DNA from: Spirochaetia bacterium
GTDB taxonomy: Bacteria; Spirochaetota; Spirochaetia; G963692905
DNA: 64,000 bases
Assembly (NCBI GenBank): GCA_965220165.1
Contig: CBDCPJ010000051.1
Span: 26,105 to 90,104, forward strand
Reading direction: 5' to 3'
Positions 61,838-62,568 of the stretch are shown here, piece by piece. Every line of letters begins with the position of its first letter. Position 1 is the stretch's first letter. The position numbers were made by a program, and so were the translations under genes. The notes beneath the pieces are model-generated. The model saw nothing but the letters and a program-made list of their open reading frames with translations. It did no database searches and was not told where the DNA came from.

Positions 61838-62568
61838 AGAATTCGCTGCCTTAGTAAAATTTGGCTATATGCTGGAAAATCCGAGTATCCGGTGGTACTA
61901 AAGTACTATTATGGGCACAAAAATTATGGAGAGGGATAAAATGAAAAAATATCTCGTTACTATAATTAGCGATCCATGGACGAGGGAACCAACTAAAGAA
62001 GAAATCGAACAAATGATGAAAGATTGGTATGCGTGGTATGATAAATTACGCTCTACCAACTCATTAGCCGATGAGGGATCTCCATTGGGAGATGATGGAA
62101 GATTGATTAGCGCAAGCAAAATCTCCAATGGAGTAACAAAATACGGCATTCGATATACAATGGGTTTTATGATAATACAGGCGGAGAATATAGATAAAGC
62201 CGCCGAATTGGCCCAAGGATGTCCCTCTGCCTCTTCAGAAACAAGCACACTCGAGATTCGAGAGTGCGTGGATATGATGTAGGACGCTATTTAGTTTACT
62301 GTCCGCGTGGGATTAATCATCGCGGACAGTATAAACGCTCATAATAACTAAAGTAACAATCCATCCGGTGCGGACAATCAGCAGGAAAGACCCGCGTTTA
62401 ATACGCGGGAATCCTCAGAGACTATACGCCAAACGTTCAGTAAGTTTTTATTGAGCGAAGATATAGTCCCATCTGCGTGGCGACACGTAGGGAATATCCT
62501 ATTCGAGACAGTCATGGATATTCCGGTCGGCTATCTATCTAACAATAGATAGCGCGATTAAGACAATA
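61838..62568 (+). mobile_element. Group I intron (IB-like) at 23S position L1931
   Basis: Splits CTAAGGT|AGCGAAATTCC. P1 CTAAGGT/GCCTTAG with U-G wobble; P10 TTCGCT/AGCGAA. P TATGCTGGAAA 61868, Q AATCAGCAGG 62376, R TCAGAGACTATA 62415, S AAGATATAGTCC 62458; P9 GCGA tetraloop. Confidence 0.95.
61941..62282 (+). CDS. Intron-encoded YciI-like (dimeric alpha+beta barrel) protein, 113 aa
   Basis: GGAGAGGGA RBS. EEIEQMMKDWYAWYDKL…GSPL…GFMIIQAENIDKAAELAQGCP…LEIRE fits the YciI/DGPF-family pattern; no LAGLIDADG, HNH or GIY-YIG motif. Confidence 0.8.
   Translation: MKKYLVTIISDPWTREPTKEEIEQMMKDWYAWYDKLRSTNSLADEGSPLGDDGRLISASKISNGVTKYGIRYTMGFMIIQAENIDKAAELAQGCPSASSETSTLEIRECVDMM

Follow-up and report, generated by a model that had tools for sequence, protein, structure and literature searches.

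A group I intron in a spirochaete 23S rRNA gene that carries a YCII-family gene in its P5 extension

A group I intron of 731 nucleotides (nt) splits the 23S ribosomal RNA (rRNA) gene of a Spirochaetia bacterium, and inside this intron lies an intact gene for a small protein of the YCII (YciI/DGPF-type) family. The window, that is, the whole stretch of DNA that was analyzed, comprises 64,000 nt of contig CBDCPJ010000051.1 (assembly GCA_965220165.1), and the intron occupies positions 61838-62568 of it. Our preferred reading, to which we assign a probability of about 0.7, is that this is a genuine intron at the L1931 site, into whose P5-extension loop a sense-oriented YCII gene with its own ribosome binding site was inserted, and that this gene is a cargo without a role in mobility. 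To our knowledge, bacterial rRNA group I introns are regarded as selfish elements with a homing endonuclease as their only cargo. The intron described here carries an ordinary gene of cellular type, which is conserved across genera and has outlived the ribozyme in a decayed copy. In the following, the genome of the window (G000) is compared with two relatives of the same family (G001 and G002), three genera in all.

The G000 draft (2.37 Mb in 54 contigs) contains one match to the large-subunit rRNA model, and this sole 23S gene found is the one that holds the intron. G002, a complete genome in a single contig, likewise has one 23S gene only. Alignment of the 23S genes leaves a block of 733 nt between ...CCUAAGGU and AGCGAAAUU, and the intron-less 23S gene of G001 (3011 nt) runs without a break from ...CCTAAGGT into AGCGAAATT. 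Because the G001 gene is uninterrupted at this junction, the insertion can be delimited to the 731 nt given above. By counting against E. coli landmarks we take the site to be U1931/A1932 in E. coli numbering. The same site is occupied by introns with LAGLIDADG endonucleases in Thermosynechococcus and in metagenome-assembled genomes (MAGs) of Chlamydiae (L082, L062), and the list of L1931 introns in PMC1995217 agrees with the assignment. Both splice sites are fixed by the internal guide, since its P10 and P1 segments are contiguous (Table 1). A different intron, from 61840 to 62570 and ending in G, was tried and rejected; its 5' splice site would follow a G-C pair and the alignment of the P1/P10 guide would be broken. 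The insertion is real DNA, because in each of three public runs, which belong to two studies, a contig covers positions 61810-62598 in one piece, with 789 nt over both junctions and 0-1 differences, which settles the reservation of the initial annotation that reads might not support it.

The Rfam model Intron_gpI (RF00028) matches the window intron with 46.0 bits (E value 2.1e-10), just below its gathering score of 50; the match is divided by the insert that holds the open reading frame (ORF). The homologous G002 intron passes the cutoff with 69.5 bits. Judged from the sequence, membership in group I rests on the homology of the whole core. Of the 53 distinct short introns the nine longest were omitted, and the other 44 entered the alignment. 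P1 is invariant in these 44 relatives, the wobble at the 5' splice site (U61837.G61848) is a U.G in 42 of them, and in the window P1 is lengthened by the pairs A61838-U61847 and G61839-C61846. The P7 guanosine-binding motif, with its G-C pair and bulged A, is canonical, and the CAGAGACUA and UAGUCC motifs match those of the relatives. The consensus fold of the 44 relatives contains 57 pairs over P1, P3, P4, P5, P5a, P6, P8, and P9, and 37 of these pairs show compensatory changes. G000 and G002 retain P7, P8, and P9 with compensatory changes of their own: P8 is re-paired almost entirely between the two, and P9 has a G-C pair specific to G000 where seven other sequences have A-U. Accordingly, the ribozyme fold has been kept under selection in the G000/G002 lineage. 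Thus the Rfam match and the G001 junction bear out the placing of a group I intron after U1931 by the initial annotation. Its description of the core as complete holds for P1, P10, and P3 to P9, all of which can be read, but it overlooked that the terminal G of the intron (omega-G) is missing.

Table 1. Features of the interrupted 23S rRNA gene, its intron and the gene-bearing insert (window positions).
Feature	Position	Strand	Evidence
23S rRNA gene	59654-63541	+	Rfam LSU_rRNA_bacteria, 2738.8 bits, model positions 1-2925
Group I intron, 731 nt, L1931 site	61838-62568	+	G001 comparison; Rfam Intron_gpI; BLAST similarity to dozens of L1931 introns
P1, 5' exon strand CUAAGGU; its last base is U1931, at the 5' splice site	61831-61837	+	pairs with 61848-61854
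Internal guide: UCGCU (P10 partner), then GCCUUAG (P1 partner)	61843-61854	+	complementarity
5' strands of P3, P4 and P5 (within 61860-61899)	61860-61865, 61870-61875, 61880-61883	+	Rfam alignment; consensus structure of 44 relatives
5' strands of P5a and of the base of the P5 tip hairpin	61889-61895, 61896-61899	+	Rfam alignment; consensus structure of 44 relatives
Insert of about 440 nt, P5-extension tip	61907-62346	+	alignment; minimum free energy (MFE) fold
Closing stem of the insert	61907-61916/62337-62346	+	in MFE fold
Shine-Dalgarno-like GGAGAGGG, 5 nt ahead of the ATG	61928-61935	+	sequence; G002 equivalent AAAGGAG
YCII/DGPF-family ORF, 113 amino acids (aa)	61941-62282	+	Pfam, AlphaFold2 and PDB matches
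Perfect 10-bp hairpin, 16 nt past the stop codon	62298-62307/62321-62330	+	in MFE fold
3' strands of P5 tip base, P5a, P5 and P4	start of the stretch 62352-62490	+	Rfam alignment
P6/P6a; P7 5' strand; P3 3' strand	62384-62414; 62416-62424; 62428-62433	+	Rfam alignment; compensatory changes
P8; P7 3' strand; P9	62434-62457; 62464-62469; 62473-62490	+	Rfam alignment; compensatory changes
Peripheral P9.1/P9.2 hairpins and 3' tail	62491-62567	+	inverted repeats; region variable among relatives
Last intron nucleotide (omega), A and not G	62568	+	G001 comparison; homologous position is G in L044
P10, 3' exon strand AGCGA	62569-62573	+	pairs with UCGCU 61843-61847, directly 5' of the guide G

In the short relatives a variable hairpin of 10-60 nt lies between GUAC and GGUGACAAUCC, and in the window this hairpin is replaced by the gene-bearing insert. 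The 113-aa ORF with its Shine-Dalgarno sequence is present as the initial annotation had it, and it is located in the loop at the end of the P5 extension. The closing stem and the hairpin behind the ORF, which had also been proposed, are both found in the MFE fold, whose z-score is -6.3 (0 of 100 shuffled sequences were equally stable). The hairpin at 62298-62330 is not terminator-like, as no T-run follows it and the terminator listing is empty on the + strand there. Other in-frame ATG codons are found at 61911 (which would give 123 aa) and, to go by the database protein P0152, which is the window protein itself called from an upstream ATG, at 61926. The start at 61941 is preferred because the family homologs begin at the same MKK. 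A promoter scan gave no site ahead of the ORF inside the intron on the + strand, and its overall count was at the level of chance (8 against 6.3 expected).

The 113-aa ORF is matched by Pfam YCII (PF03795) with 28.3 bits, where the gathering cutoff is 24. All five spirochaete proteins considered here pass this cutoff, the ORF of the G002 intron with 40.1 bits and the chromosomal copies with 31.5-33.8 bits. AlphaFold2, given an alignment of 60 sequences, returned a model with a predicted local distance difference test score of 96.2 and a predicted template modelling (TM) score of 0.85, and the fold predicted in this model is the ferredoxin-like beta-alpha-beta fold of YCII proteins. A profile search of the PDB sequences gave PA1349 (1s7i) as its sole match (E 3e-12), and the top Foldseek matches were 1s7i (PA1349, TM score 0.75), 1mwq (HI0828), 3znu (ClcF), and 4lbp (TftG). 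No nuclease fold is among the Foldseek matches listed and no Pfam nuclease domain matches the ORF at E<=10; on Pfam and fold together a degenerate homing endonuclease was rejected. The view of the initial annotation, that this is a YciI/DGPF-type protein without a nuclease motif, is thus upheld by profile, model, and PDB match. A match to Pept_S41_N (22 bits) stays under its own cutoff and was disregarded, and NCBIfam has no family for the protein. The residues W29, W32, G46, G75, A81, A87, P95, E105, and R107, which are invariant or nearly so in the 60 sequences, are all present in the window protein, and the DGPF motif reads NGVT in it.

An exhaustive profile search of 1.84 billion protein representatives found 1385 proteins at E<=1e-3 and only two at E<=1e-30, the window protein and the G002-type protein. 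The word-indexed protein search for homologues returned the query itself only, and a search with P0004 found only a distant homolog from Chloroflexia. The four nearest database relatives of the window protein are P0004, P0010, P0012, and P0014. Three of them, P0004, P0012, and P0014, come from contigs of only 1.9-2.5 kb, which is a typical length for rRNA regions that were fragmented in metagenome assemblies. Free-standing homologs were found directly upstream of a protein with Sigma70_r2/r4 and DUF6596 domains (ECF42-type) in three of the five loci examined. A conserved YCII neighbour of ECF42 was described before and a regulatory role was suggested for it (PMC8999054). DUF6596 (PF20239) was found in none of the three spirochaete genomes by a search that does find the Caulobacter protein as a control.

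In order to see how common such a cargo is, L1931 introns were collected in two ways. Scanning species-representative genomes for the L1931 P1 design gave at least 118 matches, of which 80 loci were examined; 69 have both junctions and 11 were dropped since no 3' exon could be recognized within 5 kb. Scanning metagenomes for the 20-nt P7' block gave at least 120 matches, and the 80 loci examined comprise 64 complete and 16 partial introns. The YCII hidden Markov model (HMM), which as a control matches the introns of both G000 and G002, found nothing in the 69 other complete introns from genomes and nothing in the 64 from metagenomes (0/133). The genome-derived introns contain 41 ORFs that reach 130 aa or more, and Pfam assigns 40 of them to LAGLIDADG_1. 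A LAGLIDADG HMM built from those ORFs matches every one of the 29 metagenome introns that exceed 400 nt. Together with Table 1 of PMC1995217, these counts agree with the earlier statement that L1931 introns with an ORF typically encode LAGLIDADG endonucleases. The search for homologous ORFs in other rRNA introns that the same annotation had put forward succeeded in G002 and failed in the 64 metagenome introns. YCII cargo is therefore exceptional among L1931 introns. A 631-nt L1931-type intron with an ORF of 140 aa, one of the 41 ORFs scanned, was seen in a MAG of Candidatus Woesearchaeota archaeon (L021).

The 20 best ribozyme matches to the window intron are all ORF-less and 255-311 nt long, and the nearest relatives are 85-95% identical to it in the 5' core and 72-78% in the 3' core. 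By this similarity the window ribozyme groups with minimal L1931 introns that lack an ORF; their clade is widespread, and such introns are common in uncultured bacteria. The terminal A of the window intron can also be placed in this frame. The related intron L044 ends in ...AAGACAATG and the window intron in ...AAGACAATA, from which the G-to-A change at omega is deduced; the G002 intron has the same A terminus. The last base of the 69 genome-derived introns is G in 58, A in eight, C in two, and T in one, and that of the 64 complete metagenome introns is G in 44, C in 14, and A in six. Seven of the eight genome-derived introns that end in A are only 250-302 nt long and ORF-less. An omega-G is canonical but not universal for group I introns, non-G termini are frequent in the clade of minimal L1931 introns, and the terminal A is a recurrent variant there. 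Such a sizeable minority without omega-G bears on how strict the need of the second splicing step for this base is. The metagenome introns that end in C do so, for example, with ...CGATC before AGCG, and the loci with non-G termini include L141, L147, L156, and L159.

The same arrangement is found in G002, which has an intron at the identical site with an ORF of 115 aa in the same slot, behind AAAGGAG. The two intron proteins share 31% of their residues (E 4e-18). Between the two ribozymes, stretches of 46, 26, 27, and 20 nt show no difference at all, and the 23S genes overall are 79% identical. A third variant, the database protein P0002, is 82% identical to the G002 ORF; by manual count there are 21 differences, mostly conservative and none at a family-invariant position. 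The family HMM scores the two intron ORFs with 122 and 129 bits, which matches the 110-121 bits of the chromosomal copies. Among other genomes of the class, intron DNA was found in one of 60 and in two of 400, namely G002 and G200, the latter with a weak match to the 3' core at a contig end; many of the MAGs searched lack rRNA, so this rarity means that the intron was not found in the genomes searched. In the family itself two of the three genomes have the intron, with G001 being intron-less, which fits vertical descent with one loss, or a late gain.

A further YCII gene exists in all three genomes of the family. In G000 the chromosomal copy, on contig C48, is the same protein as P0005, which at 40% identity comes closest to the intron protein among the database entries, and the G001 copy is an ordinary chromosomal gene whose flanks are not intron-like; the chromosomal copies are 29-36% identical to each other. 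In G002 the second copy lies behind a degenerate 23S exon of H68-H69, which has the variable sequence of G002's own 23S gene, and behind the 5' half of an intron. In this remnant the splice-site context CCTAAGGT has mutated to GCTAAGGC, 5 nt have been lost and the 3' half of the ribozyme is absent, and the Shine-Dalgarno sequence and an intact ORF of 113 aa are kept. Compared with the functional region, the exon part and the intron 5' half are 85% identical, whereas identity in the ORF falls to 50.5% at the DNA level and to 34% for the protein. Among the three intron-associated ORFs mutual identity is 29-34%. We conclude that the ORF was maintained independently of the ribozyme and that the slot has held at least two YCII lineages over time. 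About 270 nt upstream of the remnant an ORF of 154 aa (L254:2239-2700, minus strand) matches GIY-YIG weakly, with 20.8 bits (E 4.8e-4) where the cutoff is 22.6; a free-standing gene of homing-endonuclease type beside this fragment of ribosomal DNA (rDNA) may bear on how the fragment arrived. After the stop codon of the remnant ORF (L254, about 1380-1490, minus strand), some 40 nt repeat a segment from within the ORF (...AATCCATTGGGT..GAGAGCAAAATTATCA.AAAGGA...), which looks like a recombination scar.

Based on these data we can suggest how the intron gene may work. The YCII ORF would be transcribed inside the pre-23S rRNA from the rRNA promoter and would be freed together with the intron by self-splicing. 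Since the interrupted 23S gene is the only one, splicing must work or be bypassed. The protein would then be translated from its own Shine-Dalgarno sequence, as is the case for intron-encoded homing endonucleases. It would take no part in the mobility or the splicing of the intron, and may be retained for a cellular function of its own, as a diverged paralog of the chromosomal family in the three host-family genomes. Because it encodes no nuclease, the intron itself is probably immobile and inherited vertically. If the ORF is translated, the intron would be a bacterial counterpart of the rps3 intron of fungal mitochondria and a natural coupling of protein synthesis to rRNA transcription. The domestication of the intron as an expression vehicle, which the initial annotation proposed, is a conjecture at this point.

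Several points weigh against this reading. Both the splicing of the intron and the translation of its ORF are predictions from the DNA. In model ribozymes the absence of omega-G impairs the ligation of the exons, and the L1931 intron of Simkania is reportedly 'unspliced'. The intron ORFs of G000 and G002 are not sisters in the tree, and with a second YCII copy in each of the three genomes the intron copy is possibly redundant. The GC content of the insert (40.8%) is lower than that of the G000 genome (48.3%) and of the chromosomal paralog (50.1%), so capture from a resident gene is not evident. Also, an ORF embedded in rRNA is not always expressed; the product of the ORF in Coxiella's intervening sequence (IVS) is apparently not made (PMC4990558).

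Another possible option, tentative at this stage, is that the P5 tip is an exchangeable slot, into which YCII alleles are swapped from paralogs or from foreign rDNA, and that the intron carries a cassette coupled to growth rate and not one vertical gene. The remnant of G002 speaks for it, with flanks far more similar to the functional region than the ORF between them, and so does the low identity among the intron-associated ORFs. In a tree of 26 rows the G000 intron ORF, the G000 chromosomal copy, and the G002 remnant ORF form one subclade (94/95), and the present intron ORF of G002 stands elsewhere, within a polytomy. However, 14 of the 23 inner branches of this tree are open, and the approximately unbiased test does not reject the monophyly of the intron ORFs (p = 0.31). 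The conserved flanks of the remnant were perhaps homogenized by gene conversion with the functional rDNA, or the remnant perhaps came from a foreign relative, and fast divergence is seen among the chromosomal YCII copies too. Turnover of the slot may have taken place by cassette exchange, by foreign rDNA, or by homogenization of the flanks. That the intron as a whole has turned from a selfish element into an expression cassette, with the P5 tip as the slot for YCII alleles, of which at least two lineages stand behind near-identical ribozyme flanks, is a speculative extension. If it is true, the protein is made in step with rRNA transcription and loss of the intron is loss of the gene; such a mutual lock-in would explain why an intron without a nuclease and with a non-canonical 3' end persists in the sole 23S gene of two genera.

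We consider it unlikely that the intron does not splice at all, in which case the 23S rRNA would stay interrupted or fragmented and the ORF would be a passenger that has yet to decay. Such a state could follow from the terminal A in place of G, and the report on the Simkania intron mentioned above points the same way. Cbu.L1917 of Coxiella, on the other side, is reportedly a self-splicing 23S intron without the canonical omegaG (Raghavan et al. 2007). Both Coxiella introns are spliced according to PMC4990558; the same source notes that many bacteria tolerate fragmentation of the 23S rRNA by intervening sequences. In the public runs no spliced junction can be attributed to this organism, the RNA cover being uninformative. 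In run X7, which we guess to be RNA, a contig specific to the organism covers the 5' exon, and both the intron and the specific part of the 3' exon (62625-62800) are uncovered. The only contig that joins 61837 to 62569, from X3 (depth 4261, with 23 nt on its shorter side) was rejected, as it is universally conserved sequence of other organisms. Against a dead ribozyme stand the core blocks that are identical across genera whose 23S genes have diverged by a fifth of their positions, the compensatory changes in P8 and P9, the single 23S gene that G000 and the complete G002 genome each possess, and the ORFs that are intact in three alleles and in the remnant copy.

The initial annotation had offered as an alternative that the protein is a maturase or an RNA-binding splicing helper, which could offset the missing omega-G or the large P5 insert. 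A maturase role is frequent for intron-encoded proteins (PMC11270868), the terminal A is non-canonical, and the ferredoxin-like fold gives Foldseek matches to ribosomal protein S6. These matches are weak (E > 2e-3, TM score about 0.5) and the fold is a common one. The window protein is acidic, with an isoelectric point of 4.7, as are all five spirochaete YCII proteins (4.5-5.0). L1931 introns with a terminal A exist without any ORF, a paralog is retained in the intron-less G001, G002 keeps an ORF beside a dead ribozyme, and the family adjoins ECF42 sigma factors. On these grounds a splicing helper is disfavoured, and we hold it to be quite improbable. Least of all is the insertion, or its ORF, a foreign piece brought in by assembly or binning; the genome is a draft in many contigs and rRNA regions of MAGs are frequently misassembled, yet single contigs span both junctions in the three runs, the contig of the window runs on for 60 kb upstream, and the single-contig genome G002 shows the same arrangement, which leaves this a negligible chance.

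Returning to the preferred reading, of an intron with a non-mobility cargo, it remains to compare the window intron with known systems. Its nearest counterparts by position are the L1931 introns of Simkania, Thermotoga, and Synechococcus with LAGLIDADG genes (PMC1995217), which share the site, the P1/guide design, and a sense ORF and are 654-700 nt long against 731 nt here. Unlike in these, the cargo in the window is YCII and the ORF lies wholly in the P5 tip, not reaching into the core, and the ribozyme resembles the minimal introns without an ORF more than it does those with LAGLIDADG genes. With the minimal introns of 255-311 nt it shares helices with covariation, and several of these end in A; they have a 10-60-nt hairpin in place of the window's 440-nt insert with its gene. 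Cbu.L1917 of Coxiella burnetii is likewise a bacterial 23S intron without omega-G, its last base being A; it differs in its site, L1917, and is not known to carry a cargo gene.

Intron cargo that is not a nuclease is known from organelles. Fungal mitochondrial introns with rps3, N-acetyltransferase, or aminotransferase genes (PMC8393795) also carry a host-type gene, and the one with rps3 also lies in a large rRNA gene. Those cases are organellar and of other protein families, and rps3 encodes an essential ribosomal protein, whereas the YCII protein is small and has paralogs. In bacteria, IStrons combine a group I intron with an IS605/IS607 insertion sequence transposase (PMC10690162), so that their cargo is not a classical homing endonuclease either; yet the TnpA and TnpB of IStrons serve mobility, and YCII has no known link to it. 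By profile and fold the ECF42-associated YCII proteins and PA1349 of Pseudomonas aeruginosa (1S7I) belong to the same family as the intron protein, which differs from the former in that its three spirochaete genomes have no DUF6596 sigma factor and in the change of DGPF to NGVT. The ORFs in 23S intervening sequences of Coxiella and Leptospira (S23p; PMC4990558) are likewise small and transcribed within a 23S gene, but an IVS is excised by RNase III without ligation and has no ribozyme, and the ORF family, 23S_rRNA_IVP, is unrelated to YCII. Among 23S insertions of the Candidate Phyla Radiation, 274 of the 278 ORFs with a domain are endonucleases (PMC11270868). In the literature searched we found no description of YciI/YCII cargo in a group I intron, although Table S4 of PMC11270868 might list other families. 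What is new is the YCII cargo in a bacterial rRNA intron, whilst non-nuclease intron cargo as such is already known from organelles and IStrons.

Some further observations concern the surroundings of the intron. The 23S gene is unlinked, with neither a 16S nor a 5S rRNA found in the 64-kb window; one tRNA only lies there (26763-26834), and a protein ORF begins at 63601, 60 nt past the end of the 23S gene. Within the 23S gene an AT-rich segment of about 170 nt (60915-61084) is missing in G001 and shorter in G002. It folds as a single long stem (-62.9 kcal/mol for 189 nt) and looks like an intervening sequence of the helix-45 type, of the kind that RNase III removes. In the 23S gene of G002 a further insertion, 1171 nt long, lies upstream of the intron at the tip of the H68 region (L007:3271-4441, minus strand; 23S positions 1978-3148); it is absent from G000 and G001. 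For this insertion no Rfam intron match was found, nor a Pfam match for either of its two ORFs on the rRNA strand, one of 79 aa that contains four CxxC pairs and one of 137 aa in which hydrophobic stretches occur.

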